64,000 bases of DNA. It comes from Eubacteriales bacterium. Lineage in GTDB: Bacteria; Bacillota; Clostridia; Oscillospirales; QAKW01. This document shows, one piece after another, positions 34,042 through 55,122 of the stretch. Where the stretch lies: contig JAZQJH010000005.1 in NCBI GenBank assembly GCA_045541555.1, positions 752-64,751 on the forward strand, written 5' to 3'. Position 1 is the first letter of the stretch, and each line of letters begins with the position of its first letter. The position numbers were made by a program, and so were the translations under genes. The notes beneath the pieces were generated by a model. That model did no database searches and was not told the origin of the DNA. It saw only the letters and a list, made by a program, of their open reading frames with translations.

Positions 34042-34572
34042 TTAATAGTTGTAGCCCATTTCGAGAGCTTTGATATTCAGCTCCATCAGGTTGGCGCGCT
34101 TGGCGGAGACTACCTTTTTGAGGGCTTCGGTGATGTCGTCGAAGTTGACCAGTCCGGTCTCCTTGATCATCTTGCCCATCATGATCATATTGGCGAGGGT
34201 GGGAATGCCGGCATCCGCCGCCATCTTGGTGGCAGGGATATAGAAGGCATCTACGTCGCTGCGCTCGACCTTACGGCCGATCAAGGTACTATCCACGAAG
34301 ATCTTGCCGCCCTTGACGGTGGCTTCCTCGTATTTATCGAGAGAGGGCAGGTTCATGGCGATCAGCACGTCGGGGGTGGAGACGATGGGAGAGCCTACGG
34401 GATCATCGCTGAGGATGATGCTGCAGTTGGCGGTACCACCGCGCATTTCGGGACCGTAGGAGGGGAGCCAGCTGACTTCCTTTTGCTCCAGAAGACCCTT
34501 ATAAGCGATAAATTTACCGGCAAAGAGAACGCCCTGTCCGCCGAAACCGGCAATGAGAATTTGAGTTGTCAT
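34042..34572 (-). CDS. 2-oxoacid:ferredoxin oxidoreductase, gamma subunit
   Basis: The start is ILIAGFGGQGVLFAGK. 176 aa. Confidence 0.85.
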   Translation of the reverse strand: MTTQILIAGFGGQGVLFAGKFIAYKGLLEQKEVSWLPSYGPEMRGGTANCSIILSDDPVGSPIVSTPDVLIAMNLPSLDKYEEATVKGGKIFVDSTLIGRKVERSDVDAFYIPATKMAADAGIPTLANMIMMGKMIKETGLVNFDDITEALKKVVSAKRANLMELNIKALEMGYNY

Positions 34573-34575
34573 GGC

Positions 34576-35328
34576 TTATTTCTCCTCCTTTGCCCCGGAA
34601 CGGTCTTTATAAACGCCCAAAGGATAGTAAGGGATCATATTCTCGTCGATCCACTCCAAAGCCTTGGAGGGGGTCATACCCCAGTTGGTGGGGCAGGAAG
34701 AAACGACTTCAATAAGAGAGAAGCCTTTCCCCTCGATCTGGTTTTTGAAAGCCTTGAGGATCGCCTTCTTGGCGTTCTTGACGTTCTTCACGTTATTGAC
34801 TGCTACACGCTCGATGTACTCGGGGCCGTCCAGGGTGGAGAGCAGTTCGCTCACCTTGACGGGGTAGCCGGCGGTGGTGACGTCTCTGCCGTAGGGGGAG
34901 GTCTGGGTCACCTGCCCGGGCAGGGAGGTGGGCGCCATCTGACCGCCGGTCATGCCGTAGATGGCATTATTGACAAAGATGATGGTGATGTTTTCATTTC
35001 GGGTAGCGGCGTGAACCGTCTCGGCCATACCGATGGAGGCTAAGTCGCCGTCGCCCTGATAAGTAAAGATGACGTTCTCCGGCATACAACGCTTGAGACC
35101 GGTAGCGACTGCGGGGGCGCGGCCGTGAGCGGCCTCGACCATATCGCAGGCAAAGTAATCATAAGCCATAACGGCGCAACCAACCGGTGCAACACCGACG
35201 GTCTTGCCCACGACGCCCAGTTCATCCAGCGCCTCAGCGACCAAGCGGTGAATGATACCGTGGGTACAGCCGGGGCAATAATGGAGGGGAGCATCGGTCA
35301 ATGCTTTAGGTTTTTCAAATACGACCAT
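34576..35328 (-). CDS. 2-oxoacid:ferredoxin oxidoreductase, beta (TPP-binding) subunit
   Basis: YCPGCTHG and GDGD..IG motifs. 250 aa. Confidence 0.85.
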   Translation of the reverse strand: MVVFEKPKALTDAPLHYCPGCTHGIIHRLVAEALDELGVVGKTVGVAPVGCAVMAYDYFACDMVEAAHGRAPAVATGLKRCMPENVIFTYQGDGDLASIGMAETVHAATRNENITIIFVNNAIYGMTGGQMAPTSLPGQVTQTSPYGRDVTTAGYPVKVSELLSTLDGPEYIERVAVNNVKNVKNAKKAILKAFKNQIEGKGFSLIEVVSSCPTNWGMTPSKALEWIDENMIPYYPLGVYKDRSGAKEEK

Positions 35329-36389
35329 TATTGATTCTCCTTTGCAAGTTTTTCAATGGACTCCAGCACCTCTTCGGGGGTGGGAATCATACCGCCGACA
35401 CGGCAGCACAGCTCCACGGGCTTTTTGCAGCCGGTGGAAAGCTTGACGTCTTCGATCATCTGACCCATGGAAAGCTCCACAGAGAGGAATGCCTTGCATT
35501 GGTCAGCAGCCTTCGCCAGAACGTCCTTGGGGAAGGGCCAGAGGGTGATGGGACGGATCAGACCTACCTTGATGCCTGCCTTGCGGGCGGCGACCACAGC
35601 GTTTTTGGAAACGCGGGCGGCGATACCGAAGGCGACGACGCAGTACTCTGCATCCTCCATCATGAACTCTTCATACAGAACTTCGTTTTCCTCGATGGTC
35701 TTATACCGTTCGAAACGCTCGAAGTTGGTCTCTTCCAGAATTTCGGGCTTTAAGTAGAGAGAGTTGATGATATTATGCTTGCGCTCTTCCTTGGTGCCGC
35801 GCACTGCCCAGGGCTTCTCCACTTCTACGGGAGGAGTGTCCGGCAGTTCTACCGGCTCCATCATCTGACCCATGGTACCGTCGGCCAGCAGCATGGCAGG
35901 GACGCGGTATTTATCGGAAAGATCAAAGGCCTTGATGGTGAGGTCTGCCATTTCCTGAACGGAGGCAGGTGCCAGGACGATCAGGTGATAGTCGCCGTGA
36001 CCGCCGCCCTTGGTAGCCTGGAAATAGTCGGACTGGGAGGGCTGAATGCCACCCAAGCCCGGACCGCCACGCTGGACGTTAACGATCAGCGCCGGCAGAT
36101 CTGCACCGGCGATATAGGAGATACCCTCCTGCTTCAGGGAAACGCCGGGGCTGGAGGAAGAGGTCATAACACGGAAGCCGGCACCGGCAACGCCGTAGAC
36201 CATATTGATGGCTGCCACTTCACTCTCGGCCTGCAGGAAGGTGCCGCCGATCTTGGGCATCCGCTTGGCCATATAGGCCGCGATCTCTGTCTGGGGAGTG
36301 ATGGGATAACCGAAGTAATGGCGGCAGCCTGCCTTGATGGCGGCTTCTGCAATCGCTTCGTTACCTTTCATAAGTACTTTTTCTGCCAT
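35328..36389 (-). CDS. 2-oxoacid:ferredoxin oxidoreductase, alpha subunit
   Basis: MAEKVLMKGNEAIAEAAIKAGCRHYFGYPITPQTEI. ATG at 36389 with RBS GAGGTG. Confidence 0.85.
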   Translation of the reverse strand: MAEKVLMKGNEAIAEAAIKAGCRHYFGYPITPQTEIAAYMAKRMPKIGGTFLQAESEVAAINMVYGVAGAGFRVMTSSSSPGVSLKQEGISYIAGADLPALIVNVQRGGPGLGGIQPSQSDYFQATKGGGHGDYHLIVLAPASVQEMADLTIKAFDLSDKYRVPAMLLADGTMGQMMEPVELPDTPPVEVEKPWAVRGTKEERKHNIINSLYLKPEILEETNFERFERYKTIEENEVLYEEFMMEDAEYCVVAFGIAARVSKNAVVAARKAGIKVGLIRPITLWPFPKDVLAKAADQCKAFLSVELSMGQMIEDVKLSTGCKKPVELCCRVGGMIPTPEEVLESIEKLAKENQ

Positions 36390-36399
36390 TTTGAGCACC

Positions 36400-36606
36400 T
36401 CACTTCTCCACGGTGATCACGCAGTCGGGGCACATGGTGGCGCAGAATGCGCAGCCGATGCAGGCCGCCTGGTCGGTGATCACTGCGGGGGAATGTCCTT
36501 TCGCATTGATTTTGTCCTTGGCGATGGCGAGGATCTTCTTGGGGCAGGCGTCCACGCAGAGGGAGCAGCCTTTGCAAAGATCTTCGTTGAAGGTTACTTT
36601 TGCCAT
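36400..36606 (-). CDS. 2-oxoacid:ferredoxin oxidoreductase, delta (2x[4Fe-4S] ferredoxin) subunit
   Basis: 68 aa with CKGCSLCVDACP and CIGCAFCATMCP. ATG at 36606. Confidence 0.85.
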   Translation of the reverse strand: MAKVTFNEDLCKGCSLCVDACPKKILAIAKDKINAKGHSPAVITDQAACIGCAFCATMCPDCVITVEK

Positions 36607-36619: not shown

Positions 36620-37270
36620 TTAATAGTATTTCTTTTGCAAATCGAGGGGGAAGAAGTCTTCGCCGGTCTCTTTGCAAAGCTCCGCGGTAGCGGAGGTATA
36701 AACCACCGGCAAGCCGGCAAGAGCGGAAAGGGCTTCCGCCTTTTCCATGGTGTCCTTTACCGCTTGGAGGGTGGTATCTTCACCTAAATTGGAATTATTG
36801 ATGATGCCGGTACATTGGATATGCGCCGCCTGCTCGATCTCGCGCATGATGGTGAGCGCATCCTCCGGCGTGGGGGTCAGGGGACGGTAGAAATTGACGA
36901 CGAAATACATTTCATAGTCATTTTCCTCCAAGATCGCCGGTGCATACCGCCCGAGGGCGTAAGCACCTCGATCATCGCCGCCCACGTCCATCACCGCATG
37001 AAAGTCCCGGCGCTGAACCAGGCTATAAAGCTCGGCAGGCAGGGCAGGCAGATCCACGTTAGTATTGGCAAAGGCCGGAGAGATCAAGGGAATCCCTGCC
37101 TCCTCCAATTCCTTGGCGCTGTCCTTGGTGCGGAAATAGGGGTTGACGATGTCCAGGTCGGCAATCTTGACCGGCAGACCCTCTTTTTTCAACTTCAGAG
37201 CGAAGTTGACGGCCAGATTGGTCTTGCCGCTGCCGTAGTGACCGGCAAAAATATGTATTCTTTTAGCCAT
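36620..37270 (-). CDS. P-loop NTPase (MinD/ParA/SIMIBI-like) of unknown role
   Basis: The Walker A-like motif is FAGHYGSGKTNLA. 216 aa. The start overlaps the ilvE stop. Confidence 0.5.
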   Translation of the reverse strand: MAKRIHIFAGHYGSGKTNLAVNFALKLKKEGLPVKIADLDIVNPYFRTKDSAKELEEAGIPLISPAFANTNVDLPALPAELYSLVQRRDFHAVMDVGGDDRGAYALGRYAPAILEENDYEMYFVVNFYRPLTPTPEDALTIMREIEQAAHIQCTGIINNSNLGEDTTLQAVKDTMEKAEALSALAGLPVVYTSATAELCKETGEDFFPLDLQKKYY

Positions 37271-38342
37271 TGCAGACGAATTCGCTCCAGCCGAAGGGAT
37301 CCTCCTGCTTGCCCCACTGAATACCGGTCAGGTTATCGTAGAGCTTCTGGGTCAGAGGACCGATCTCGTTGTTGCAAACGGTGTACTCGGTGCCCTTATA
37401 GAAGAGATGACCGATGGGGGAGACGACGGCAGCGGTGCCGGTGCCCCAGGCTTCTTCCAGAGTGCCGTTCTGGACGGCGTCGAAGAGCTCATCCACGGAG
37501 AACAACCGCTCCTCTACCTCATAGCCCCAGGACTTCAAAAGCTCCACGCAGGACTTCCGGGTGATGCCGGGGAGGACGGAGCCGGTCAGCGCCGGGGTGA
37601 TGATCTTGCCGTTCACCTTGAACATGACGTTCATGGCACCGACTTCTTCGATATACTTACGCTCTACGCCGTCCAGCCAAAGAACCTGGGTATAGCCGTT
37701 GCGCTCGGCACGCTCGCCGGCGCGGAGAGAAGCGGCATAGTTACCGCCGCACTTGGCATAGCCGGTACCGCCGCGGACGGCACGGACATCCTCGGACTCG
37801 ATGGCGATCTTGACGGGGTTCAAGCCTTCGGCATAGTAAGCGCCCACGGGGGAGCAGATGATGGCGAAGGTGGCGTTATGGACGGCGTGGACGCCCAGAT
37901 GGGGGTCGTTACCGAAGAGGAACGGACGGATATAAAGGGAAGTGCCCTCGGAATGGGGAACCCAATCCTTTTCCAATTCCACGATGGTTTTGATGATATC
38001 CAAGCAGGCTTCCTCGTCGATCTCCGGCAGGCAAAGACGCTCTGCGGAGTTGTTCAGCCGCTTGATGTTCTCCATGGGGCGGAAGAGGCGGATGCTGCCG
38101 TCAGCAGCGCGGTAAGCCTTCATGCCCTCGAAGATCTCTGCACCGTAGTGCAGGACGGTAGAGGCCGGATGGATAGGCATCGGGCCAAAGGGGACGATGC
38201 GTGCATCATGCCAGCCCTCCTCCGTATTGTAGTCCATCAGGAACATATGGTCGGTAAAGATGCGGCCAAAGCCCAATTTGGACTCATCGGCAGGACGCTC
38301 CTTGGGAGCGGCAGTCTTGGTGATTTTGATTTCGTACTTCAT
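37263..38342 (-). CDS. ilvE: branched-chain amino acid aminotransferase
   Basis: 359 aa. FGRIFTDHMF, YGAEIFEGMKAY and the fold-type IV pattern are present. Confidence 0.9.
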   Translation of the reverse strand: MKYEIKITKTAAPKERPADESKLGFGRIFTDHMFLMDYNTEEGWHDARIVPFGPMPIHPASTVLHYGAEIFEGMKAYRAADGSIRLFRPMENIKRLNNSAERLCLPEIDEEACLDIIKTIVELEKDWVPHSEGTSLYIRPFLFGNDPHLGVHAVHNATFAIICSPVGAYYAEGLNPVKIAIESEDVRAVRGGTGYAKCGGNYAASLRAGERAERNGYTQVLWLDGVERKYIEEVGAMNVMFKVNGKIITPALTGSVLPGITRKSCVELLKSWGYEVEERLFSVDELFDAVQNGTLEEAWGTGTAAVVSPIGHLFYKGTEYTVCNNEIGPLTQKLYDNLTGIQWGKQEDPFGWSEFVCNG

Positions 38343-38363: not shown

Positions 38364-40658
38364 TTACAGCTTATTGCGTTGGATCTTACCGCTGACCGTC
38401 TTGGGAAGGCTATCCCGGAAGACGACCACACGGGGATATTTATAGGGCGCGGTGCGCGCCTTGACGTAATCCTGGATCTCTTTTTTGAGCTCGTCGGTGG
38501 GCTCGGTGCCCTTGACCAGCACGATGCTTGCCTTGACCACCTGGCCGCGAACCTCATCCGGCATGGCGGAGACGCCGCACTCCAGGACGTAGGGAAGCTC
38601 CATGATGACGTTTTCGATCTCGAAGGGTCCGATGCGGTAGCCGGAGGATTTGATGACGTCGTCTACCCGACCCACGTACCAGAAATAACCGTCTTCATCC
38701 CGCCAAGCGGTATCGCCGGTGTGATAATAGCCGTCGTGCCAGCATTCGGCGGTCTTTTCTTCGTCTTTATAGTAACCCTTGAAGAGGCCGCAGGGTGCGC
38801 CCTTGCTGACGTTGATACAGATCTCACCCACGTCACCCACCGGCACGTCCTTGCCGTCGGCATCCAGCAGATGGATGTCATAAAGGGGAACCGGCTTACC
38901 CATAGAGCCCAGCCGCGTCTTGGTACCTGCCAGATTGGCCAGCGCTACGGTAGTCTCGGTCTGACCGAAGCCTTCCATGATCTGCAGACCGGTGGCCTTT
39001 TCAAACTGACGGAATACCTCGGGGTTGAGGGCTTCGCCGGCGGTGGTCATATGCTCGATGGAAGAAAGATCGAATTTGGAAAGATCCTGCTTGATCATCA
39101 GCCGCAGCATGGTGGGCGGCGCGCAGAAGGTGGTGATATTATACTTGGCGAACATCGGCAGAATGTCGTCGGCATCGAAGCGATCGAAGTCGTAGACAAA
39201 GAGGCCGGCTTCGCAAAGCCACTGACCGTAGATCTTACCCCAGGCGGCTTTCGCCCAGCCGGTATCGGAGATGGTCAGGTGCAGACCCTCGGGATTGATG
39301 CAATGCCAATACTTGGCGGTGATCAGGTGACCCAAAGGATATTTATAACTATGCATGGCAATCTTGGGATTGCCGGTGGTGCCGGAGGTGAAGTACATCA
39401 GCATGGGATCGTCGCCGCAGGGAGCGCCCTCGCCTCGATCGTAGCGGCCGGTATAGAGCTCGTACTCTGCATCAAAGGAACGCCAGCCCTCCATGGTGCC
39501 GTTCACCATCAGCTTATGCTCCAGGGTGGGGCAATGGGGCGCGGCTTTATCCACTTCTACCGCCACGTTATCGTCGCAGGTGCAGACCACCATCTTGACG
39601 CCGGCTTTATTGATGCGGTATTCGATATCATGCTCTTTTAACTGGTTGGTGGCAGGGATGGCCACCGCGCCGATCTTATGCAACGCCAGTATACAGAACC
39701 AGAACTGATAGTGCCGCTTCAGCACCAGCATGACCTTATCGCCCTTTTGGATGCCCAAGGATTTAAAGTAGTTGGCAGTCTGGGAGGAGGCGCGCTTCAT
39801 ATCGGAGAAGGTGAAGCGGCGCTCGGTGCCGTCCTTGCTGATATGGAGCATCGCCAGCTTCTCCGGCTGCTCCCGACCCATCCGGTCGATGACGTCAAAG
39901 GCAAAGTTGAAGGAATTCTCATTCTTAAAGGAGATGGCCTTGGGGACGCCGTTCTCATCTTCGTCCACAAAAGCATAGTCCTGCCAGATGCGCTTGCGAT
40001 CTGCCACCTTCTTTTTCGCCGGGGCAATGAAGTCCCGGGTCTTGCCGGCGTGCACCAGCTTGGTGATGGGCTCGCTGGCAGGGTTCAGCACGATGGCGTA
40101 GAAGATACAGTCCTGATCCTCCACGGCGATCATGCCGTGGGGAGTGGAGGAGTCGTAATAAATACTGTCTCCTTCATGGAGGATCTCCACGTGGTCGCCT
40201 ACCTGCACTTTCAAAGCGCCCTTGACCACGATATCACATTCCTGCCCCTCATGGGTGGTCAGCTCGATATCCGCATTCTCGGACTGGGCATTATAGTCCG
40301 ATACCACGTAAAGGGGCTCTGCAATTCTGTTCTTAAAGGAAGATGCCAGATTATAATAGGTCATGCCGTGCGCCTTCTGGATCTCCTGGCCTTCACCCTT
40401 ACGAGTGACGGTATAGCCTGCCAGACGAGGACCGGTACCTTCGATGATCTCGGTGACGTCCACGTTCAGCGCCAAAGCGCAGCGATAGAGGAACGCAAAG
40501 TTCAGATCCTGCTCGCCTGCCTCGCAGCGAAGATATTCCTCTTCGCTGACGCCGGTCTTCAGCGCCATCTCCGCCTGGGTATAGCCAATAATTTCTCGCA
40601 GCGTTTTGATACGCTGCGCCATTTCCTGAATTTTAAATTCAAGTCCGGTTGCTTTCAT
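38364..40658 (-). CDS. fusion protein: XRE HTH + cupin + AMP-forming short/medium-chain acyl-CoA synthetase (behind the Val T-box)
   Basis: The N-terminus reads RIKTLREIIGYTQAEMALKTGVSEEEY (HTH) then HEGQE..GD..H..GDS.YYDS..PH (cupin). The C-terminus carries YFTSGTTGNPK, ISDTGW, YHTGD and GRVDDVIKSSGYRIGPFEIE. Confidence 0.8.
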   Translation of the reverse strand: MKATGLEFKIQEMAQRIKTLREIIGYTQAEMALKTGVSEEEYLRCEAGEQDLNFAFLYRCALALNVDVTEIIEGTGPRLAGYTVTRKGEGQEIQKAHGMTYYNLASSFKNRIAEPLYVVSDYNAQSENADIELTTHEGQECDIVVKGALKVQVGDHVEILHEGDSIYYDSSTPHGMIAVEDQDCIFYAIVLNPASEPITKLVHAGKTRDFIAPAKKKVADRKRIWQDYAFVDEDENGVPKAISFKNENSFNFAFDVIDRMGREQPEKLAMLHISKDGTERRFTFSDMKRASSQTANYFKSLGIQKGDKVMLVLKRHYQFWFCILALHKIGAVAIPATNQLKEHDIEYRINKAGVKMVVCTCDDNVAVEVDKAAPHCPTLEHKLMVNGTMEGWRSFDAEYELYTGRYDRGEGAPCGDDPMLMYFTSGTTGNPKIAMHSYKYPLGHLITAKYWHCINPEGLHLTISDTGWAKAAWGKIYGQWLCEAGLFVYDFDRFDADDILPMFAKYNITTFCAPPTMLRLMIKQDLSKFDLSSIEHMTTAGEALNPEVFRQFEKATGLQIMEGFGQTETTVALANLAGTKTRLGSMGKPVPLYDIHLLDADGKDVPVGDVGEICINVSKGAPCGLFKGYYKDEEKTAECWHDGYYHTGDTAWRDEDGYFWYVGRVDDVIKSSGYRIGPFEIENVIMELPYVLECGVSAMPDEVRGQVVKASIVLVKGTEPTDELKKEIQDYVKARTAPYKYPRVVVFRDSLPKTVSGKIQRNKL

Positions 40659-40689: not shown

Positions 40690-40985
40690 TTTTAAGAAAA
40701 TAAGGGGCTCGCCTCAAAGATATGATTTCTTTGAGACGAGCCTTGAAAATACTTCAATACCCGCGGTACCACTCAAATTGCATCTTGCGATGCCCCTCAG
40801 GCTCCATTAAGCCTTATGCATTAACGCAGCAGTCACGGGGAGGTTCTACTAAGGAATTCCTTTTCTTCCTCCCGGCTCAGAAGCTACAAACATCAGCATC
40901 CTCAGAACGGCTCGCACCGACCGCCGCTTCTCTGACTTCGGAAAATCTCATGCACTCTTCGTCACAGCCTTAAAAGTAGTTTATC
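40690..40985 (-). promoter_or_regulatory. T-box leader, putative Val specifier (GUA, plus-strand 40885-40887)
   Basis: Minus-strand elements: promoter TTGACA / 17 nt / ATAAAC; stem I GCTGTGACGAAG...CTTCTGAGC; AGAGA and GGTGCGAG; T-box AATTTGAGTGGTACCGCGGG; terminator 40701-40744 plus U-run. Confidence 0.75.
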
Positions 40986-41272: not shown

Positions 41273-43540
41273 TTAGAGCTTATTTCTTTGGATTTTACCG
41301 CTGATGGTCTTGGGCAGTTCGTCCTTGAAGACGATGACCCGGGGATACTTATAGGGGGCGGTATGGGTCTTGACGTAGTTCTGGATCTCCTTTTTGAGTT
41401 CCTCGGTGCCTTCGGTGCCGGGGGTCAGCACGATGCTGGCCTTGACCACCTGACCGCGGATCTCATCGGGAGCGGCGGAAACGCCGCATTCCAGGACGTA
41501 GGGAAGCTCCATGATGACGCTTTCGATCTCAAAGGGTCCGATGCGGTAGCCGGAGGATTTGATGACGTCGTCGATCCGGCTGACGTACCAGAAATAACCG
41601 TCCTCGTCCCGCCATGCGGTATCGCCGGTGTGATACATGCCGTCGTACCAGGCGTTGTCGGTCTTCTCCTGATCGCGGTAATACTGCTTAAAGAGACCGC
41701 AGGGGATGGACTTATCGGTATGGATGACGATTTCGCCGGTCTCGCCATCTGCCACCGGGTTGCCCTCGGGGTCAACGATATCCACGTCGAACTGGGGAGA
41801 TGCCTTGCCCATAGAGCCGATCTTGGGGGCGGTGCCGACCAGGTTGCCGATGGCAAGGGTGGTCTCGGTCTGACCGAAGCCCTCCATGATCTCCAGGCCG
41901 GTGGCATCCCGGAACTGCTTGAATACTTCGGGGTTCAAGGCCTCGCCGGCGGTGGTCATATGATGGATGGAGGAGAGATCGTATTTGGAGAGATCTCCCT
42001 TGATGAGCATTCTCAGCATGGTGGGAGGAGCGCAGAAGGTGGTGATATTGTACTTGGCGAACATGGGGAGGATCTCGTCGGCATCAAAGCGGTCGAAATC
42101 GTAGACGAAGACGGCGCCCTCGCAGAGCCATTGACCGTAGAGCTTACCCCAGAGGGATTTGCCCCAGCCGGTATCGGAGATGGTCAGATGCAAGCCGACC
42201 CGCTCACAACAATGCCAGTACTTAGCGGTAACAAAGTGCCCCAGGCCATAAGTATGCTTATGGGCGGCCATCTTGGGATTGCCGGTGGTGCCGGAGGTGA
42301 AGAACATCAGGGCGATCTCATCACCGCCGCCGCAATCGGCAGTCCGCTCAAATTTGGTGGAGAACCGGGCAAATTCGGTGTTGAAATCATGCCAGCCCTC
42401 TTTCGGCTGACCGACGATGATCTTGGTCTTGAGGCAGTCGCATTTTTCTGCGGCGGCTGCGGCGATATCGGCGGTATCGCCGTCGGAGGTGCAGACGATG
42501 GCGCTGACACCGGCAGCGGTATAACGATATTCAAAGTCGTGCTCCTTGAGCTGGTTGGTGGCCGGGATGGCGATGGCACCCAGCTTATGCAGGGCGATCA
42601 TGGCGAACCAGAACTGATAGTGGCGCTTCAGCACCAGCATGACCCGGTCGCCCTTCTTGATGCCCAGAGAAGCAAAATAGTTTGCGGTCTGGTTGCTGTA
42701 TTTCTTGATATCCTTGAAGGTGAAGCGGCGCTCATTTTTATGAACGTCCAGATGGAGCATCGCCAGCTTATCGGGATACTTATCGGCGATGGCGTCCACG
42801 ATGTCAAAGCCGTAGTTGAAGTGTTCGGTATTGACGAACTCGATCTTTTGCAGACTGCCATGCTCGTCTTCCTGGGTCTTGACGAACTTTTCGCAGATGA
42901 GCTCCTCAGACTTTTTGGCGGTCACGATGCTCTTGCGGACGGTAGACTCCTTGGTCTCCTCGCCGGGCAATACCACTGCCAAAAAGACGCAGTCGGCACC
43001 GTCTACGGCGATCATGCCGTGGGGAGTAGAAGAGTTATAATAGATGCTGTCGCCCTCATGCAGGAGTTCGGTATGTTCGCCGATCTGCACCTTCAGGGAG
43101 CCGCTGAGGATCAGGTCAAATTCCTGACCGCTGTGCTTGGTGAGGTGGATGGGCTTATTCTGCTGAGCGGGATCGTATTCATAGCGTACGTGGTACGGCT
43201 CCGCGATTTTATCCCGGAACATCGGTGCGAGGTTGCGGATGTCAATGCCGTCCTCCTGCGCGGTGGTCTGACCCTGACCCTTCCGGGTGACGGTATAGCT
43301 GGAAAGACGGGCGGAATGACCCTCCAAAAGCTCGGTCAGCTCCACGTCAAAAGCCAATGCACACTTATGTATAAAGGTAAAGGGAATATCCGCTTGAGCG
43401 TTTTCGTAAATCAGATACTGCTCCCGGCTGACTTCTGTTTTGGCAGCCATTTCGCCGACCGACCAGCCCAGAATATCACGCATCTCCTTGATACGGGCGG
43501 CGATCTCAGTCAATCGAAGCATTGCGGTGTTGGTGTTCAT
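41273..43540 (-). CDS. fusion protein: XRE HTH + cupin + AMP-forming acyl-CoA synthetase, paralog (behind the Ile T-box)
   Basis: Same architecture and long identical blocks (DFDRFDAD.ILPMFAKYNITTFCAPPTML). The true start is the ATG at 43540 (MNTNTAML), after the leader terminator. The ORF-track start at 43657 lies inside the T-box. Confidence 0.8.
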   Translation of the reverse strand: MNTNTAMLRLTEIAARIKEMRDILGWSVGEMAAKTEVSREQYLIYENAQADIPFTFIHKCALAFDVELTELLEGHSARLSSYTVTRKGQGQTTAQEDGIDIRNLAPMFRDKIAEPYHVRYEYDPAQQNKPIHLTKHSGQEFDLILSGSLKVQIGEHTELLHEGDSIYYNSSTPHGMIAVDGADCVFLAVVLPGEETKESTVRKSIVTAKKSEELICEKFVKTQEDEHGSLQKIEFVNTEHFNYGFDIVDAIADKYPDKLAMLHLDVHKNERRFTFKDIKKYSNQTANYFASLGIKKGDRVMLVLKRHYQFWFAMIALHKLGAIAIPATNQLKEHDFEYRYTAAGVSAIVCTSDGDTADIAAAAAEKCDCLKTKIIVGQPKEGWHDFNTEFARFSTKFERTADCGGGDEIALMFFTSGTTGNPKMAAHKHTYGLGHFVTAKYWHCCERVGLHLTISDTGWGKSLWGKLYGQWLCEGAVFVYDFDRFDADEILPMFAKYNITTFCAPPTMLRMLIKGDLSKYDLSSIHHMTTAGEALNPEVFKQFRDATGLEIMEGFGQTETTLAIGNLVGTAPKIGSMGKASPQFDVDIVDPEGNPVADGETGEIVIHTDKSIPCGLFKQYYRDQEKTDNAWYDGMYHTGDTAWRDEDGYFWYVSRIDDVIKSSGYRIGPFEIESVIMELPYVLECGVSAAPDEIRGQVVKASIVLTPGTEGTEELKKEIQNYVKTHTAPYKYPRVIVFKDELPKTISGKIQRNKL

Positions 43541-43565
43541 GGTGTTTTCTCCTTTACAAAATTTA

Positions 43566-43837
43566 AAAATAAAAAGACTCGTCTCAAATTTCTTTGAGAC
43601 GAGTCTTGAATAAACAATACCCGCGGTACCACTCAAATTGCATCCAAAGGATGCCACTCAGGCTCTATCAAGCCGTATGCATTCACGCAGCAATCACGAA
43701 GGGCGCCTACCTATCGGACCCTCAGCTCGGAAGTGATGGGAAATTCAGCAGTCCTTTACCGGGATCACACCACCCCCGGCTCTCTTTGAAAATCGTTGCC
43801 GATTCCGTCTTCGTCATCGCTTTTACAATATGAAATT
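43566..43837 (-). promoter_or_regulatory. T-box leader, putative Ile specifier (AUC, plus-strand 43735-43737)
   Basis: Promoter TTGACA (43867-43872, rc) / 17 nt / TAAAAT (43844-43849, rc). Stem I is GCGATGACGAAG...CTTCCGAGC. AGAGAG and GGTGGTG are present. The T-box is AATTTGAGTGGTACCGCGGG. The terminator AAGACTCGTCTC..GAGACGAGTCTT is followed by a U-run. Confidence 0.8.
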
Positions 43838-43888: not shown

Positions 43889-46339
43889 TTATTTCAGTCC
43901 CAATTGCTCGATGGAATTTTCTCTCATCTTGTATTTCAGGATCTTACCGGCGGCGTTCATGGGGAAGGAATCGGTGAGGATGAAATAGCGGGGTACCTTA
44001 TGCATCGCCATATGGGCGGCGCCATAAGCGCGCATCTCTTCCTCATCGGAGGTCTGACCCTCATGCAGGATGATCCAGGCGCAGCATTCCTCGCCGTAGC
44101 GCTGGTCGGGAACGCCCACCACCTGCACGTCGCGCACCTTGGGATGGGTGAGATAGAATTCCTCGATCTCCCGGGGGTAGAGGTTTTCACCGCCGCGGAT
44201 GATCATATCCTTCAGCCGTCCGGTAATCTTGTAGTAACCGTCGGGGGTGCGGCAGGCAATATCGCCGCTATGCAGCCAGCCATCGGCGTCGATGGCCTCG
44301 GCAGTCGCCTTGGGCATTTTATAATAGCCCTTCATGATGTTGAAGCCGCGTGCCACGAACTCGCCGTTCTCGCCGTCCGGCAATTCTTCGCCGGTCTCCG
44401 GGTCGATGATCTTACACTCCACGCCGGGGAAGGCGGAACCGACGGTTTCCACCCGGTGATCCAGATCCTCATTGACCTCGCCCATGGTACAGCCGGGGGA
44501 TGCCTCGGTCTGACCATAAACGCTGATGATCTCGCGCATATTCATCTCCACCGAGGCGCGGCGCATCAGATCTGCCGGGCAGTTGGCACCGGCCATGATG
44601 CCGGTACGCATATGGGAGAAATCGGTCTTGCCGAAATCCTCATGGTTAAACATGGCGATGAACATGGTCGGCACGCCGTTAAAGCAGGTGATCTTTTCAT
44701 CGTTGATGCAGGCCAGCGAGGACTTGGGAGAGAAGTAGGGCATGGGGCAGATGGTGCCGCCATGGGTCATCAGGTTGGTCATGGAAAGGACCATGCCGAA
44801 GCAATGGAACATCGGCACCTGGATCATCATACGATCCGCGGTGGAGATATCCATCCGGTCGCCGATGGTCTTGCCGTTATTGATGATATTGCGGTGGGTC
44901 AGCATGACGCCCTTGGGGAAGCCGGTGGTACCGGAGGTGTACTGCATATTGCAGACGTCGTCCGGCTTGACGGCCGCCGCCAGGCGGCGAACCTCCTCCC
45001 GGGGAATGGCATCGCCTTTTTCCACGAACTCATCCCACTCTAAGCAGCCCGCCATCTTAAAGCCGACGGTAATGACGTTGCGCAGGAAGGGCAGATTTTT
45101 GGAATAGAGGGGCTCGCCGGGCCTGGTATTCTTCAGCTCGGGGCAGAGCTCTTCGATAATCCCCTTATAATCGGAATCTCTGCAGTTTTCGATCATGACG
45201 AGGGTATGGGTATCGGACTGGCGGAAGAGGTATTCCGCCTCATGGATCTTATAAGCGGTATTGACTGTTACCAGCACTGCACCGATCTTGACACTGGCCC
45301 AGAAGATGATAAACCATTGGGGGATATTGGTCGCCCAGATGGATACGTGGTGACCGGGCTTGACGCCCATAGCAATGAGGGCGGCTGCCGTGCGGTCCAC
45401 GTCCTCCCGGAACTGGGCATAGGTACGGGTATAATCCAGGGTGGTGTACTTAAAGGCGTACTGGTCGGGGTAGCGCTCCACCATCTCGTCCAATACCTGA
45501 GAGAAGGTCAGGTCGATGACCTCGTACTTCTTCCAGGGGAAGGTGCCGGTCTTATCCCGGTTATAAAAGATCTCCCGGGGCTTTGCGGCGGTGGGGAGTT
45601 TGCCGGAAATATAGCTGATGAAATGGGTCAATACAATATCGGGGTCGGTGATCTCTTCATTCCAGTCCACCGCCAGATAGCCCTCGTAGTTGAGGGAGCG
45701 GAGGGCGTTCATGAAGTCTGCAACCGGCAGAACGCCGTCACCCAAGAGGACGTCCTTGCCCTCTTTGCGGTCACCGATCCGGACGTAGTTGATATAAGCA
45801 CCCAAGTTCTGAATGGTGGTATCGGCATCTTCCTTGGCGGTGAAATAGGTCTCCCGGATATTCCAGCAGACGCCGATGCAGGCAGAGCCGAAGCTGCGGA
45901 TGATCTCGATGATCTTTTGGGTGTCTGCCAGAGCGCCGACGGTCTCGATCAGGATGAGAGCGCCATTTTTCTCTGCTTTTTTAATGGCAGGGGCGAAGAC
46001 CTTTTTCAGCGCATCGGAATCCGGCTCGCCGATCTGCACCACTACGCCCAATGCGGAGGCACGCGCCGCCAGGCTGACGTATTTTTTTAGCAGTTCGGGA
46101 TCGGTGGCGGACGTCACCGGCTCGGGGCAGGTAAGGAAAGAAACGCCGATATGGCGATTGATCAGCTTGCGCTTGGCGGCGGCGTTGACCGCAGAGCGGA
46201 GGATGCTATCCTCATGGGCTTCCTTTTCGGCGATGGGGTCGAAAAGCTCAAAGCCGTCAAAGCCGTATTCAGCCGTCAGATTGCAGAGGTTGATATAACT
46301 CTCTGCCGGTACATTTTTGGTTGAAAAAACTAATTTCAT
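43889..46339 (-). CDS. fusion protein: xylose-isomerase-like TIM barrel + FadD-type AMP-forming acyl-CoA ligase
   Basis: 816 aa. The N-terminal ~260 aa follow the sugar-phosphate isomerase/epimerase-like pattern (..GFDGFELF..). The C-terminus carries MQYTSGTTGFPKGVMLTH, WLHSGD and GRLKDMIIRGGENLYPREIE. Confidence 0.7.
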   Translation of the reverse strand: MKLVFSTKNVPAESYINLCNLTAEYGFDGFELFDPIAEKEAHEDSILRSAVNAAAKRKLINRHIGVSFLTCPEPVTSATDPELLKKYVSLAARASALGVVVQIGEPDSDALKKVFAPAIKKAEKNGALILIETVGALADTQKIIEIIRSFGSACIGVCWNIRETYFTAKEDADTTIQNLGAYINYVRIGDRKEGKDVLLGDGVLPVADFMNALRSLNYEGYLAVDWNEEITDPDIVLTHFISYISGKLPTAAKPREIFYNRDKTGTFPWKKYEVIDLTFSQVLDEMVERYPDQYAFKYTTLDYTRTYAQFREDVDRTAAALIAMGVKPGHHVSIWATNIPQWFIIFWASVKIGAVLVTVNTAYKIHEAEYLFRQSDTHTLVMIENCRDSDYKGIIEELCPELKNTRPGEPLYSKNLPFLRNVITVGFKMAGCLEWDEFVEKGDAIPREEVRRLAAAVKPDDVCNMQYTSGTTGFPKGVMLTHRNIINNGKTIGDRMDISTADRMMIQVPMFHCFGMVLSMTNLMTHGGTICPMPYFSPKSSLACINDEKITCFNGVPTMFIAMFNHEDFGKTDFSHMRTGIMAGANCPADLMRRASVEMNMREIISVYGQTEASPGCTMGEVNEDLDHRVETVGSAFPGVECKIIDPETGEELPDGENGEFVARGFNIMKGYYKMPKATAEAIDADGWLHSGDIACRTPDGYYKITGRLKDMIIRGGENLYPREIEEFYLTHPKVRDVQVVGVPDQRYGEECCAWIILHEGQTSDEEEMRAYGAAHMAMHKVPRYFILTDSFPMNAAGKILKYKMRENSIEQLGLK

Positions 46340-46344: not shown

Positions 46345-47712
46345 TTAACCCTCAAATACGATCTTGTTGAGTGCATTGACGTAGGCGCGGATGCAGGCAC
46401 CGATAATATCGGTGGAAACGCCGTTGCCGGAATAAAGCTTGCCGTTTGCACGCAGGCGAATCAGCGCGGAGCCCACCGCCTCGCGGCCTTTGGTGACGGC
46501 TTGAACCTGGAAATCGTCCAGCTCATAATGATGGCCGACGATCTGCTCAATGGCGTGGAAGGCGGCGTCGATGGGGCCGTCGCCGGTGGAAACACCGGTC
46601 AGCTTTTCGCCGTCTTTTTCCAGGGTCAGATTGGCGGTGGCGGTAATGATATTGCCGCTGTTGACGACGTAATTGATGACGTGGAAGGTAGAAGGTACCT
46701 GCATGGCGGCGGAGGCGACGATAGCTTCCATCTCCCGGGCACCGATGGTCTCTTTCTTCTCGATGACGCGCTTGAATTCCTCATAGACCTTGCCCTGATC
46801 CTCATCGGAGAGGTCGTAGCCCAGCTCTTTTACCGCGGCGGCGATCTCAGCCAAGGTGGCGGTATTGCCGAGGGTGGCGGTGCTTTCGGTCTCTGCTACG
46901 GCAGGGGCGGCAGTCCGTTCTTCCTTGCCGCCGGCGATGGAGGCGATGATCTTATGGATCGCCGTATTGTCCAGATTGGTGGCGGCGGAGAGGGTGTCCT
47001 CTTTGGCGCGGAAGATGTCTGCCAGAATATCGGCGCGGAGCGCACCCTTGCAGGCCGCGGTCTTGATGCCGTCGGCACCGGCTTTGACTGCCTCAATGGC
47101 AGAGGAGGCAGCCATGGAAAGGGCATCAGAGGGCTGGACGTAGACCTGAAGACCGCAGGCGGTCTTGATCTCCCGGACGATGGCTGTATAATCCTCGGGG
47201 AAGGAGATGCCGCTATCGTCGCAGACGGTGATGGCGGAAGCGCCGTTTTCCTCAGCGGTCTTGCAGCAGGCGGCGATAAAGCCGTCCTCTGCGCGGGAGG
47301 CATCCCGGGCGACCAGCTCTACCCTGGCGCAAAGAGCGGATGCTTCTTTACAAAGAGCCGCCAATTTTTCCAGCATCTTGGGGGCTTTCAAATGATAGGT
47401 ATATTCCATCTGCACCGTAGAGGTGGGCAGGACGATCTGCAGGATGGGATCCTGCGCGTCCTTGATGCACGCCCAAGCGGCGGCAGGCGCATCGCCCACG
47501 TCGATAGCAACAGACGCATTTTTGACAGCGGAAGCAATGGTTCTGGCGACCACTGCATCCTCTTTTTCGTTCAAAAGCGCGGGAAGCTCAATGGTGTCCA
47601 CCCCGGCTGCGTCCAGCAGCTGGGCAATATTCAGCTTCTCCCGGAAGGAGAGGGCATTTTTTTGCTCGGCATAAGCGCGCAACGTAACGTCGGAAACAAT
47701 GATCTTTTTCAT
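46345..47712 (-). CDS. 2-isopropylmalate-synthase-like protein with degenerate catalytic motifs and an intact LeuA regulatory/dimerisation domain
   Basis: DVTLRAYAEQ replaces DTTLRDGEQ, and VYVQPSDALSMAA replaces H.HND.G.A. The C-terminal GDGPIDAAFHAI..GSALIRL..G.GVSTDII is conserved. The ATG at 47712 follows the leader terminator. Confidence 0.7.
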   Translation of the reverse strand: MKKIIVSDVTLRAYAEQKNALSFREKLNIAQLLDAAGVDTIELPALLNEKEDAVVARTIASAVKNASVAIDVGDAPAAAWACIKDAQDPILQIVLPTSTVQMEYTYHLKAPKMLEKLAALCKEASALCARVELVARDASRAEDGFIAACCKTAEENGASAITVCDDSGISFPEDYTAIVREIKTACGLQVYVQPSDALSMAASSAIEAVKAGADGIKTAACKGALRADILADIFRAKEDTLSAATNLDNTAIHKIIASIAGGKEERTAAPAVAETESTATLGNTATLAEIAAAVKELGYDLSDEDQGKVYEEFKRVIEKKETIGAREMEAIVASAAMQVPSTFHVINYVVNSGNIITATANLTLEKDGEKLTGVSTGDGPIDAAFHAIEQIVGHHYELDDFQVQAVTKGREAVGSALIRLRANGKLYSGNGVSTDIIGACIRAYVNALNKIVFEG

Positions 47713-47730: not shown

Positions 47731-48012
47731 TAAAAAATCCCGCAAAGAGAAAAAACTCTTTGCGGGATGATCAAACAAATAGAATGACCACGGTACCACC
47801 CGGCCTTGCTTCCTTTTTTAGGGGAAACCACTTTACGGACTCCATCAAGCCCTTGATCTATGACGGGATCTCCCGGGCACTCTTACTAAAGTTCAGAACA
47901 CCAGCTCCGATACGAGACAGGCACCTGCGTCCTCTACCGCCTCGCACCGTCCGGCGGCTCTCTGAAAGAAGCGTTGCAAGCCCTTAATATCATCATCGCA
48001 TTTTTTAAATTT
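47731..48012 (-). promoter_or_regulatory. T-box leader, putative Leu specifier (CUC, plus-strand 47914-47916)
   Basis: Promoter TTGACA (48043-48048, rc) / 17 nt / TAAAAT (48020-48025, rc). Stem I is GCGATGATGATA...TATCGGAGC. AGAGAG and GGTGCGAG are present. The T-box is GGCCGGGTGGTACCGTGG. The terminator CCCGCAAAGAG..CTCTTTGCGGG is followed by a U-run. Confidence 0.8.
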
Positions 48013-48044
48013 GTTAAATATTTTAATGCAACTTTTTGGAAATG

Positions 48045-48833
48045 TCAATACTTTTTTAAAATTTTTTCGGCGTTGCGGTAAGCAATTTTTTCCTTATCCT
48101 CATCCCGGAGGTTCATCTGCAGAAAGTATTCCGCTTCTTCCTTGGGATCCCAAAGGGGGAAGTCGCTTCCGTAGAGCACCCGATCAGCGCCGTAGAGGTC
48201 GATATATTTATAAAAATCCTCTTCGCTCATGAACTGACGGGAGCTGGAAAGATCCACCCAGCAGTTTTCGTTTTTCAGAAGCTCATACGCCATTCCCTGA
48301 ACGCCCCAACCGCCAAAATGGGCACCGATGACCTCCAGCTTCGGAAAGTTTTCCAGCACCTTCAAAAGCCGCCGGGGGTGGGAGTAATCGTAGCGCGGAT
48401 CGCCGGTATGCATGATGATGGGCATTTTGCCCTGGATATAATCATACATGGGGAAAAGCCGCTCGTCGTCGATATTAAAAAGCTGGGTATCGGGATGGAT
48501 CTTGATGCCGAGAAGTCCGCTCTTTTCGATAAACTTCAGTTCTTCCTCCAGATCGTCCATGGCGGCGTGAACGGTGCCAAAGCCATGAAATTCCGGGTGG
48601 AGCGCCACTTCGTCGATAATATTCTGATTGATCTTGCGAACCTGCTTGGGATTGAGTGCTACCGGGAGCACCACGAACTCCGAAATGCCGCCGGCCTTGC
48701 CACGCTCCAGCAAGAATTCTGCCGTGCCGTGGACACCGCCCTGATCCATTTCGTAGAAATCCCGGACTGCCTGGGTTGCCTTATCGGCGATGGCTTCGGG
48801 ATAAATATGGGTATGAAAGTCAATTAATTTCAA
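48045..48833 (-). CDS. amidohydrolase-family (TIM-barrel metal-dependent hydrolase) protein
   Basis: KLIDFHTHIYP is near the N-terminus. I prefer the TTG at 48833 (RBS AAGGTG). The promoter TTGACA / 17 nt / TAAACT would place the transcription start near the ORF-track GTG at 48869. Confidence 0.6.
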   Translation of the reverse strand: MKLIDFHTHIYPEAIADKATQAVRDFYEMDQGGVHGTAEFLLERGKAGGISEFVVLPVALNPKQVRKINQNIIDEVALHPEFHGFGTVHAAMDDLEEELKFIEKSGLLGIKIHPDTQLFNIDDERLFPMYDYIQGKMPIIMHTGDPRYDYSHPRRLLKVLENFPKLEVIGAHFGGWGVQGMAYELLKNENCWVDLSSSRQFMSEEDFYKYIDLYGADRVLYGSDFPLWDPKEEAEYFLQMNLRDEDKEKIAYRNAEKILKKY

Positions 48834-48923
48834 TTTTTTCACCTTCTTTAATGTTAACGAGTTTAGCACGAAAAAAGTGTGATGTCAATAAAAACCGCAG
48901 GGAAAAAATACCCTGCGGAATCA

Positions 48924-53102: not shown

Positions 53103-54857
53103 TTATGCAGTCTTTTTCTTTTGTACCATATAGATGGCGGTAAGAACGGCTAAGAGCAGGAGCAGGGAAACGCCCAGAATGACGAAGACGTTCTGGATAA
53201 AGCCTGCCATCAGATAACCGACCAAGGAAACGGCGGCGACGGTGAGTGCGTAGGGCAGTTGGGTGGCTACGTGGTTGACGTGGTCACTCTTGGCACCGGC
53301 GGAAGCCATGATGGTGGTATCGGAGATGGGGGAGCAATGGTCACCGCAGACCGCACCGGACAGGCAGGCGGCGATGCAGATGACGACCATGGCAGGGATG
53401 GCGGCGCTATCGGTAACGCCGGCCAACTGACCCTCAAAGACACCGGTAACGATGGGAATCAGGATACCGAAGGTGCCCCAAGAGGTACCGGTGGCAAAGG
53501 AAAGACCGCAAGCCACCAGGAAGAGCAGGGCAGGCAGCAGGATCTGCAGTGCCTTGGCACTCTCTACCAGGGCGGCCACGTAGCCGCTGGCATCCAAAAG
53601 CCCGGTCATGGATTTCAGACCCCAGGCGAAGGTCAGGATCAGGATGGCGGGAACCATCTGCTTGAAGCCCTCGGGGATGGCGGCGGTGCACTCTTTGAAG
53701 GAAAGCACGCGGCGGCACATAAAATAGATCATATTCAAGATCAAAGCGGCGATGGAGCCGACGGCCAGACCATAGGCGGCATCGCAGTTGGCAAAGGAAT
53801 TGATAAAGCTTTCGCCGGAGAAGAAGCCGCCGGTATAGATCATACCTGCTACGCAGAGGATGATGAGGATGGCCACCGGGATGATCAGATCCATGACCTT
53901 GCCGCGGGGATTGGATTTTTCATCCTCTTCGCCGGAGAACTGCTCGCCGCCGGAGGTATAAAGATCGCCGTTCAGGGCGTTCTTCTCAAAACGCTTCATG
54001 GGACCGAAATCCATGCCGGTAAAGGCAATGAAAAGCACCATGGCGATGGTCAGCAGGGCATAGAGGTTAAAGGGGATGGTCTGGATAAAGAGCGCCAGTC
54101 CGTTGACTCCCTCCACGGTGCCGGAAACGGCAGCCGCCCAGGAAGAGATGGGGGCAATAATACAGATGGGGGCGGCGGTGGCGTCGATGAGATAGGCCAG
54201 CTTTGCCCGGGAGATGCGTTGCTTATCGGTGATAGGGCGCATGACGCTGCCGACGGTCAGACAGTTGAAATAGTCGTCCACAAAGATGAGGGCGCCCAGA
54301 CCAAAGGTGGCCAGCTGCGCACCGCGGCGGTTTTTGATCTTGGCGGATGCCCATTCGCCGTAGGCGCGGCTGCCGCCGGCGTGGTTCATCATCACCACAA
54401 TGGCGCCCAGCACTACCAGGAAGATCAGAATGCCGACGTTCCATTCATCTGCCAGGTTGGCGATAAAGCCTTCATGAACCACGGCGTTGAACATGGTTTC
54501 AAAGCTGAAACCGGTCTGGCTGATGGCATAAAGCACACCGCCGGAAAGAATACCAAGGAAGAGAGAGGAATAGACCTCCTTGGTGATCAGCGCCAGTACA
54601 ATGGCGATGATCGGGGGGAGCAGTGCCCAGAAGGTGCCTTCAAAGAGAGAGGAATAGGTTTCTTCGGTCTCTTCTGAGCCTGCCCCCTCGATGGGAGCGT
54701 CTTCAGTCACCGTTGCTTCGGTGAGGGTGGGTTCTGCCGGAGCGGCAGAGTCGTCCAGTGCAGCGGCGGAGCAGGCAAAAATCCCCAGCATCCCGATGAC
54801 CAGGATGAGGGCGAAGAAGCGGCTCAGCAGCGTTCTGTTGTTTGAGATAAAATTCAT
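53103..54857 (-). CDS. NhaC-family transporter (candidate lysine transporter)
   Basis: 584 aa and polytopic. ATG at 54857 with RBS AGGAGGG. It sits directly behind a lysine riboswitch. Confidence 0.75.
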   Translation of the reverse strand: MNFISNNRTLLSRFFALILVIGMLGIFACSAAALDDSAAPAEPTLTEATVTEDAPIEGAGSEETEETYSSLFEGTFWALLPPIIAIVLALITKEVYSSLFLGILSGGVLYAISQTGFSFETMFNAVVHEGFIANLADEWNVGILIFLVVLGAIVVMMNHAGGSRAYGEWASAKIKNRRGAQLATFGLGALIFVDDYFNCLTVGSVMRPITDKQRISRAKLAYLIDATAAPICIIAPISSWAAAVSGTVEGVNGLALFIQTIPFNLYALLTIAMVLFIAFTGMDFGPMKRFEKNALNGDLYTSGGEQFSGEEDEKSNPRGKVMDLIIPVAILIILCVAGMIYTGGFFSGESFINSFANCDAAYGLAVGSIAALILNMIYFMCRRVLSFKECTAAIPEGFKQMVPAILILTFAWGLKSMTGLLDASGYVAALVESAKALQILLPALLFLVACGLSFATGTSWGTFGILIPIVTGVFEGQLAGVTDSAAIPAMVVICIAACLSGAVCGDHCSPISDTTIMASAGAKSDHVNHVATQLPYALTVAAVSLVGYLMAGFIQNVFVILGVSLLLLLAVLTAIYMVQKKKTA

Positions 54858-54884
54858 CTTTATCCCTCCTATAAAAAATAATAC

Positions 54885-55122
54885 AAAAAAACAGCCCGTA
54901 AAGAACGTGGAATACATTCTTTACGGGCTATTATCATAGTCTTGTAAAAAAGATGGCACTCCACAAATCCTGTGACAGTCCGGCGCATATTCTGCGGCGA
55001 CCCAGCAACCAAATTCCGGGGGTCTGGAACCTGGAAACTTCGGCGGTAGTGCCTTTCACCGGTGCTCCTTTTAAACCCATTGAGTACCGTTACTGATCAA
55101 TACCGCGCCTCCATCGGCTATT
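54885..55122 (-). promoter_or_regulatory. lysine riboswitch (L-box) with intrinsic terminator
   Basis: Minus-strand motifs in order are GAGGCGC, AGTAA, GGTGAAAGG, CGCCGAAG, GCTGGG, CTGTCA and GTGGAGTGC. The terminator is AGCCCGTAAAGAA..TTCTTTACGGGCT plus T7. The promoter is TTGACA / 18 nt / TACTAT. Confidence 0.8.

Follow-up and report, generated by a model that had tools for sequence, protein, structure and literature searches.

The window analysed here, a stretch of 64,000 nucleotides from an Eubacteriales bacterium (contig JAZQJH010000005.1 of assembly GCA_045541555.1, positions 752 to 64,751), carries on its minus strand a gene whose 455-residue product resembles 2-isopropylmalate synthase (LeuA). 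Alignments and profile scores strongly support the view that this LeuA-like protein is a paralogue of the synthase without catalytic activity, in other words a pseudo-IPMS. The best overall explanation for it, which we hold with about even confidence, is that it acts as the leucine-feedback subunit of the neighbouring leucine-branch acyl-CoA ligase, in a cluster that would salvage branched-chain fatty acids (BCFA) into branched-chain amino acids (BCAA). The gene and the parts of its product are located as follows.

46345..47712, minus strand: LeuA-like gene, with ATG at 47712 and TAA at 46345-46347, encoding a 455-amino-acid product.
46978..47712, minus strand: residues 1-245, HMGL-like TIM barrel without catalytic residues (PF00682, Foldseek, alignments).
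46843..46977, minus strand: residues 246-290, variable linker in place of LeuA subdomain I (alignment, predicted local distance difference test (pLDDT), ratio of nonsynonymous to synonymous substitution rates (dN/dS)).
46345..46842, minus strand: residues 291-455 and stop codon, subdomain II and LeuA_dimer regulatory (predicted leucine-binding) domain (PF08502, conservation).

A longer open reading frame, starting at a GTG and reaching 47799, was dismissed, the ATG at 47712 being preferred because the longer frame would cover the terminator of the T-box leader that precedes the gene. Pfam assigned residues 4-218 to HMGL-like (PF00682, 86.6 bits) and residues 325-451 to LeuA_dimer (PF08502, 105.6 bits, with 127 of the 131 profile positions covered). 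The AlphaFold2 model, computed with 72 homologues in the alignment, reached a mean pLDDT of 87, and disorder was confined to residues 264-278 (pLDDT below 50). In Foldseek comparisons, the barrel matched the N-domain of LeuA 3ewb with a root-mean-square deviation of 2.0 A and a TMt of 0.89, and the whole chain matched full-length M. tuberculosis LeuA (3fig/1sr9) with an E value of about 1e-21. LeuA itself (EC 2.3.3.13; TIGR00973/PRK00915; structures 3rmj, 3ewb and 1sr9/3fig) presents the same order of HMGL-like barrel, helical subdomain II and LeuA_dimer domain; by contrast, the LeuA-like protein is devoid of the Asp/His/His site, the catalytic Glu, the SxxH His and the HSSGIH subdomain I.

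HMMER alignments to the LeuA structures 3ewb and 3rmj pair DVTLRAYAEQ of the LeuA-like protein with DTTLRD-GEQ of the enzyme, the metal-ligand Asp being replaced by Ala and one residue being inserted, exactly as a preliminary description of this DNA had read the motif. The same alignments pair the H-C-H of LeuA with Q-P-S, so that the loss of both His metal ligands announced in that description is borne out, whereas the register it gave (Y-V-Q-P-S-D) is off by one or two residues. When the protein was aligned by MAFFT with E. coli LeuA, the SxxH His was found to be replaced by Gln, the catalytic Glu of the ED motif by Arg and the Thr of DTVG by Asp; the GERAGN motif is shorter, and about 45 residues corresponding to subdomain I, including AFAHSSGIHQDG with the HSSGIH motif, are deleted.

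These changes were followed in a census of 77 LeuA-like sequences sharing 44-97% identity. A His occurs at either HxH position in none of the 77, and when shifted ligands were sought in the same sequences, no His or Asp was found near the canonical ligand positions. The metal-ligand Asp is kept in four sequences and the catalytic Glu in nine, the SxxH His is replaced by Gln in 61, and the RDG Arg has given way to another residue in 49, of which 30 have Lys. Scores against the NCBIfam equivalog models all remained below half of the respective cutoffs, from the best, NF002086 (227.7 bits against 532), to TIGR00973 (210 against 599), NifV (88 against 463) and CimA (38.6 against 450). The barrel is thus predicted to be no longer able to bind the active-site metal or to perform the Claisen condensation. 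It could be argued that the protein is a true isopropylmalate or citramalate synthase that has diverged and in which the metal ligands occupy other sequence positions, since the LeuA fold and domain order are retained overall and Leu T-boxes normally govern leucine biosynthetic genes. We consider this highly improbable: three independent alignments (HMMER against PDB structures, MAFFT with E. coli LeuA and the NCBIfam profiles) agree on the substitutions, His is absent beside as well as at the HxH position in the whole census, the HSSGIH subdomain is deleted, every equivalog cutoff is missed by more than half, and no leuBCD genes lie near the LeuA-like gene.

The family is broad. From metagenome-assembled genomes of Clostridia, over 100 proteins of 454-460 amino acids with 60-89% identity were retrieved by a word-indexed search, and an exhaustive search of representatives returned about 120 clusters at 50% identity, all of 453-497 amino acids. 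A clear score gap separates this family from canonical LeuAs, which reach at most 190 bits and match in two stretches because the LeuA-like query has the subdomain I deletion. In a genome scan, at least 569 species-level genomes were found to carry the gene; the carriers include Christensenellaceae, Acutalibacteraceae, Oscillospiraceae and others, with relatives from rumen and hindgut Clostridia. NCBI names the members 'hypothetical protein' or 'alpha-isopropylmalate synthase regulatory domain-containing protein', while some sources label them 2-isopropylmalate synthase, a label that would lead metabolic reconstructions to ascribe to carriers, wrongly, the initial reaction of classical leucine synthesis.

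Computed against three relatives, dN/dS was lowest in subdomain II with the regulatory domain (0.02-0.05), followed by the barrel (0.08-0.13) and the linker (0.33-0.56), and mean pairwise identity was 0.41 for the barrel, 0.20 for the linker and 0.71 for the regulatory domain. As judged from its dN/dS, the dead barrel is still under strong purifying selection, and the regulatory domain is under very strong selection. Decay as a pseudogene is ruled out by these ratios and by the breadth of the family. The family-wide absence of the canonical Claisen-condensation residues in a protein nevertheless under strong purifying selection strongly supports the proposal of a pseudoenzyme.

Selection of this strength on the barrel (dN/dS of about 0.1) would also be expected if the barrel had been neo-functionalised, its remodelled pocket binding or transforming isovaleryl-CoA, isovaleryl-AMP or 2-ketoisocaproate. 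Such a barrel might pass acyl-CoA from the downstream ligase to the 2-ketoisovalerate:ferredoxin oxidoreductase (VOR) of the cluster, or, perhaps in concert with the ligase's TIM domain and the Amidohydro_2 enzyme encoded nearby, catalyse a reaction that requires no metal. Residues Q101, E103, Y104, H107, K109, D166 and K217, which are not found in LeuA, are invariant, and position 12 is basic (K or R) in 58 of the 77 sequences. Moreover, HMGL-like barrels form channelling complexes with acyl-CoA-handling partners, the aldolase-dehydrogenases 1nvm, 4jn6 and 8ih7 being among the Foldseek matches, and the conserved Amidohydro_2 neighbour hints at additional chemistry. Even so, we regard neo-functionalisation as rather unlikely, as the route from isovalerate to leucine needs nothing beyond the ligase, VOR and the aminotransferase IlvE, the positions that correspond to the substrate and metal ligands in LeuA differ from one family member to another, unlike those of a conserved active site, and it is the regulatory domain, not the barrel, that is most conserved.

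The C-terminal LeuA_dimer domain, already singled out as well conserved in the preliminary description, is near-invariant across the LeuA-like family. Its matches to PDB sequences are weak (3f6g, E value 3e-5; 1sr9, E value 0.012) and served for motif alignment only. In that alignment, the family-invariant GDGPIDA pairs with GNGPLAA of M. tuberculosis LeuA, and L398, F401 and A412 pair with V551, Y554 and A565; we take the GNGPLAA loop, V551, Y554 and A565 to line the leucine site in the leucine-bound structure 3FIG. The MAFFT alignment further showed no variation within the family at the column of E. coli G462; the G462D change yields the feedback-resistant LeuA of metabolic engineering. The regulatory motifs common to LeuA and the LeuA-like protein comprise GxGPxDA, the G462 column and TDI...A..A.N. 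Retention of the GDGPIDA loop (GNGPxxA of LeuA) and of the G462 column fits a leucine sensor. A purely structural role could be imagined for the same domain, the protein being an obligatory scaffold or assembly subunit that would, for instance, dimerise the ligase through LeuA_dimer with no response to leucine: the C-terminal domain of LeuA is a dimerisation domain according to the PF08502 description, and the synteny and coupled junction reported below show partnership and are silent on ligand sensing. This seems improbable to us, given that the conservation exceeds what a dimer interface needs, extending to the GxGPxxA loop, the pocket residues and the G462 column (with the roles that we ascribe to these residues), and that a Leu-specific T-box makes a link to leucine natural.

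The regulatory region upstream of the LeuA-like gene comprises three elements.

48020..48048, minus strand: sigma-70-like promoter TTGACA-17-TAAAAT of the Leu T-box operon (consensus scan, 11/12 matches).
47760..48005, minus strand: T-box leader with a CUC (Leu) specifier followed by G (RF00230).
47737..47768, minus strand: T-box intrinsic terminator, 13-bp stem and U-run (sequence).

RF00230 matched the leader over its full length with 91.2 bits (E value 1.3e-20), 1.8 bits below the gathering score of 93, and the default Rfam scan missed it because the score falls just under this threshold; orthologous Leu leaders reach 102-137 bits with the same model. The CUC-G lies at the base of Stem I, before the UAUC/GAUA helix, with a purine after the specifier, and the T-box sequence GGGUGGUACCG (UGGN T-box bulge) is present. 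The LeuA-like gene is indeed the first gene behind a Leu-specific T-box, as originally proposed. The 5-nt gap reported between its stop codon and the start of the downstream TIM-barrel/ligase fusion was found again (ccacc), and the ribosome-binding site of the fusion, GAGGG, falls within the 3' end of the upstream gene. The two genes are co-transcribed and probably translationally coupled. In Firmicutes, leu operons are often under a Leu T-box, as the LeuA-like gene is; it adjoins an acyl-CoA ligase gene and not leuBCD.

The downstream gene encodes an 816-amino-acid protein in which Pfam recognised an AP_endonuc_2 TIM barrel followed by AMP-binding and AMP-binding_C domains.

45530..46339, minus strand: N-terminal xylose-isomerase-like TIM domain of the ligase fusion (PF01261, AlphaFold2, Foldseek).
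43889..45529, minus strand: AMP-forming acyl-CoA ligase domain, predicted isovalerate-CoA ligase (PF00501 and PF13193).

The ligase domain contains the motif SGTTGFPKG. For both domains of the fusion and for the Amidohydro_2 protein, searches of PDB and NCBIfam gave generic matches only, none of which indicated a substrate. The TIM domain was modelled by AlphaFold2 with a pLDDT of 88 and matched ketose 3-epimerases in Foldseek (TM about 0.7). Its metal positions, placed from partial HMMER matches to 4kw2 and 2zds, read E-N-E-R-D here, the canonical E-D-H-H-E in 11 of the 76 aligned relatives, which form a divergent subgroup, and E-D-S-H-E in three more. The TIM domain may therefore be a second pseudoenzyme domain in the module, and both barrels look non-catalytic here, because the metal site of the TIM domain is degenerate and the ligands of the LeuA-like barrel are lost.

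The TIM::ligase gene comes directly after the LeuA-like gene in each of the 80 related loci with further contig sequence. Identity to the window proteins over these 80 loci ranges from 68 to 92% for the ligase domain, from 28 to 98% for the TIM domain and from 44 to 97% for the LeuA-like protein. Pairwise identities of the dead barrel and of the TIM domain are correlated with r = 0.87, and when the ligase domain was controlled for, the partial correlation with the TIM domain was 0.64 for the dead barrel compared to 0.28 for the regulatory domain. Taken together, the invariant synteny, the coupled junction and the co-variation of rates between barrel and TIM domain strongly support the earlier suggestion that the LeuA-like protein works with the downstream ligase. 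The preliminary interpretation thus holds as regards pseudoenzyme status and partnership with the ligase, while the leucine-sensor role that it proposed keeps the standing of a prediction. A physiological rationale for this role comes from the wider cluster, which the preliminary description did not take in.

Downstream of the module, a permissive Rfam scan revealed two further T-boxes, both under the gathering score, in a cluster that extends the set of acyl-CoA ligases; an Amidohydro_2 gene lies on the other side.

43592..43826, minus strand: T-box leader with an AUC (Ile) specifier followed by A (RF00230, 84.5 bits).
41273..43543, minus strand: helix-turn-helix (HTH)-cupin::MbcS-like acyl-CoA ligase, predicted 2-methylbutyrate-CoA ligase (HTH_19/HTH_3, Cupin_2, AMP-binding).
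40729..40974, minus strand: T-box leader with a GUA (Val) specifier followed by G (RF00230, 78.6 bits).
38364..40658, minus strand: HTH-cupin::acyl-CoA ligase paralogue, predicted isobutyrate-CoA ligase (Pfam).
37263..38342, minus strand: IlvE, branched-chain amino acid aminotransferase (NF009897, 480.6 bits, cutoff 307).
36620..37270, minus strand: P-loop (CbiA/ParA-like) protein of 216 amino acids (weak Pfam matches, no NCBIfam match).
34042..36606, minus strand: four-subunit VOR (POR_N/PFOR_II, TPP_enzyme_C, POR, Fer4).
36400-36606, minus strand: VOR delta.
35328-36398, minus strand: VOR alpha.
34576-35328, minus strand: VOR beta.
34042-34572, minus strand: VOR gamma.
48045..48869, minus strand: Amidohydro_2 gene (PF04909).

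The Ile and Val T-boxes each have their own promoter, like the Leu promoter, and their own terminator. The VOR alpha subunit passes the VorB model NF005507 (566 bits against a cutoff of 399). The P-loop gene is kept between the IlvE and VOR delta genes in more than 30 related loci, and a role as Fe-S or maturation factor of VOR is possible for its product. The Amidohydro_2 protein has an intact N-terminal HxH and no NCBIfam match, and among PDB structures it is most similar to BB4693 (3irs), itself uncharacterised; the Amidohydro_2 gene varies in position, being upstream of the T-box in some genomes and in the Leu operon after the ligase gene in others.

It is the uncharged cognate tRNA that causes a T-box to switch its genes on, and AMP-forming ligases work in the direction of acyl-CoA; for these two reasons we read the cluster as biosynthetic. 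A catabolic reading, from BCAA to BCFA, was rejected on the direction of the ligases and the logic of the T-boxes. AMP-forming acyl-CoA ligases, VOR and IlvE are encoded together, and this arrangement is kept in related loci. Rumen and gut anaerobes need or use isovalerate, 2-methylbutyrate and isobutyrate for branched-chain amino acids, and the cluster most likely turns these three acids into leucine, isoleucine and valine, respectively, by reductive carboxylation. The ligase substrates are predicted from the Leu, Ile and Val specifiers, the similarity to MbcS and the AMP-forming chemistry.

The ligases behind the Ile and Val T-boxes are closest to MbcS, the methylbutyryl-CoA synthetase of S. 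aureus, with the product of 41273..43543 scoring 453 bits, under the cutoff of 850. MbcS is the nearest named family for these two enzymes and its substrates match their specifiers: purified MbcS activates 2-methylbutyrate and isobutyrate, and accepts isovalerate poorly (PMC10026030). It differs from them in feeding fatty-acid synthesis and in having no HTH-cupin extension. By contrast, the Leu-branch ligase belongs to a different ANL subfamily (PRK12583-like) and comes with a TIM domain and the pseudo-LeuA. PMC7356843 cites, for rumen bacteria, the long-known formation of leucine from isovalerate, which is carboxylated and then aminated. Reductive carboxylation of BCFA to BCAA in rumen and gut anaerobes needs a ligase, VOR and IlvE, the very set predicted here. 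Neither the T-box wiring nor the pseudo-LeuA is part of any description of this rumen route that we found. In the literature covered, we found no assignment of the reductive-carboxylation physiology to these genes and no gene-level account of the route in Clostridia.

In the scheme that we propose, isovalerate would be converted to isovaleryl-CoA by the TIM::ligase, then to 2-ketoisocaproate by VOR and finally to leucine by IlvE, and the isoleucine and valine branches would run in parallel, each through its own T-box-controlled MbcS-like ligase. The pseudo-IPMS would dock on the ligase, probably through its barrel to the TIM domain, and occupancy of its regulatory domain by leucine would be relayed to the ligase, resulting in feedback inhibition of the first committed step. 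This feedback would add to the transcriptional control exerted by the T-box. The HTH-cupin module fused to the Ile and Val ligases is plausibly a small-molecule sensor; the Leu-branch ligase has in its stead a TIM domain and, as a separate product, the pseudo-LeuA, which in the most economical reading would be its leucine-sensing subunit. With somewhat less than even confidence, we further suggest that the pseudo-LeuA feedback subunit with its isovalerate-CoA ligase, the two HTH-cupin ligases, IlvE and VOR form a previously unassigned BCFA-to-BCAA gene set of gut and rumen Clostridia in which each branch is gated by its cognate T-box.

The organisation of related loci was compared. One or two HTH-cupin ligase genes often follow the pair formed by the LeuA-like and TIM::ligase genes, and are themselves followed by the IlvE, P-loop and VOR genes. 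In loci of the Christensenellaceae type, the pair runs straight into the IlvE, P-loop and VOR genes, with no separate Ile or Val ligase gene. In 65 of the 74 loci to which a simple structural parser was applied, T-box motifs lay no more than 200 nt ahead of the LeuA-like gene. For about one third of the loci, the regex-based parser gave no specifier or an ambiguous one; in the leaders that were parsed, the specifier before the LeuA-like gene is Leu in 41 of 44 (40 CUC and one CUG), that before the first HTH-cupin ligase is AUC in 21 of 21, and that before the second is GUA in 13 of 13. The covariance model, run on 12 further loci, placed a T-box before the gene in eight of the nine with enough upstream sequence. 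No T-box motif was seen upstream of the LeuA-like gene in L049, L050, L051, L056, L059, L068, L070 and L073, and in L070 (1..1095) the covariance model found no T-box within 1.1 kb. As some relatives have no such motif upstream, T-box control of the module is not universal. Tandem T-boxes were observed in L008, at 4475-4691 and 4793-5002, with a Leu CUC specifier and then an Ile AUC specifier, and tandem T-boxes with differing specifiers also occur in L031, L011, L016 and L035, all five loci being of the Christensenellaceae type. Serial terminators with different tRNA specificities would amount to AND logic, which is unusual.

Several points weigh against the leucine-feedback explanation. The barrel has an invariant residue set of its own (STVQMEY-YH-K, D137/R140, CDD-G and K217), which could line a novel pocket for ligand binding or catalysis instead of a surface for docking. 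The co-variation of rates between barrel and TIM domain is confounded by phylogeny. No LeuA-like::TIM::ligase fusion was present in the best 150 representatives of 1.84 billion clusters, so that the pairing receives no Rosetta-stone support; a word-indexed search for fusions with the TIM domain gave mostly contig-end fragments. The best NCBIfam match of the ligase is the generic PRK12583 (676 bits, under the cutoff of 832), and isovalerate is proposed as its substrate from the T-box specifier and the genomic context only. Where Leu and Ile T-boxes stand in tandem, the ligase may serve more than one branch and would then not be leucine-specific everywhere. The Amidohydro_2 enzyme, always encoded beside the module, has no role in the scheme. 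Finally, the complex, the binding of leucine and its effect on the ligase are themselves predicted from sequence.

HisZ, a paralogue of histidyl-tRNA synthetase, is a regulatory subunit of the ATP phosphoribosyltransferase HisG(S). The likeness lies in the reuse of an inactive paralogue of an amino-acid-recognising enzyme as an end-product sensor of a first committed enzyme; fold and pathway are unrelated, and complex and regulation are experimental for HisZ but predicted for the pseudo-LeuA. The small subunit of acetohydroxyacid synthase, IlvN/IlvH, offers a second likeness, as a separate regulatory polypeptide through which BCAA feed back on a pathway entry enzyme; unlike the LeuA-like protein, it is an ACT-domain valine sensor and not a degenerate enzyme, and its partner is acetohydroxyacid synthase. 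We found no published description of the pseudo-LeuA or of the cluster in the literature covered, which excludes most subscription journals, and prior work is possible. If correct, the proposed role would provide, in the pseudo-LeuA, a new example of a biosynthetic enzyme reused to sense the end product of a different, salvage pathway that leads to its own amino acid; the pseudo-LeuA would also be among the few pseudoenzymes documented in the core metabolism of bacteria. The T-box specifiers label the three ligases by amino acid, with VOR and IlvE alongside, which makes the assignment directly testable.

Two other features of the window were recorded. A lysine riboswitch (RF00168, 88 bits; 54946..55121, minus strand) lies upstream of a Na_H_antiporter-family (NhaC-like) gene at 53103..54917 on the minus strand, and the NhaC-like membrane protein encoded behind it is presumably a lysine transporter. 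A tRNA gene (13708..13781, plus strand) is directly followed by a phage-type integrase gene (13880..15016, minus strand), which suggests an integrated mobile element starting at this tRNA gene.

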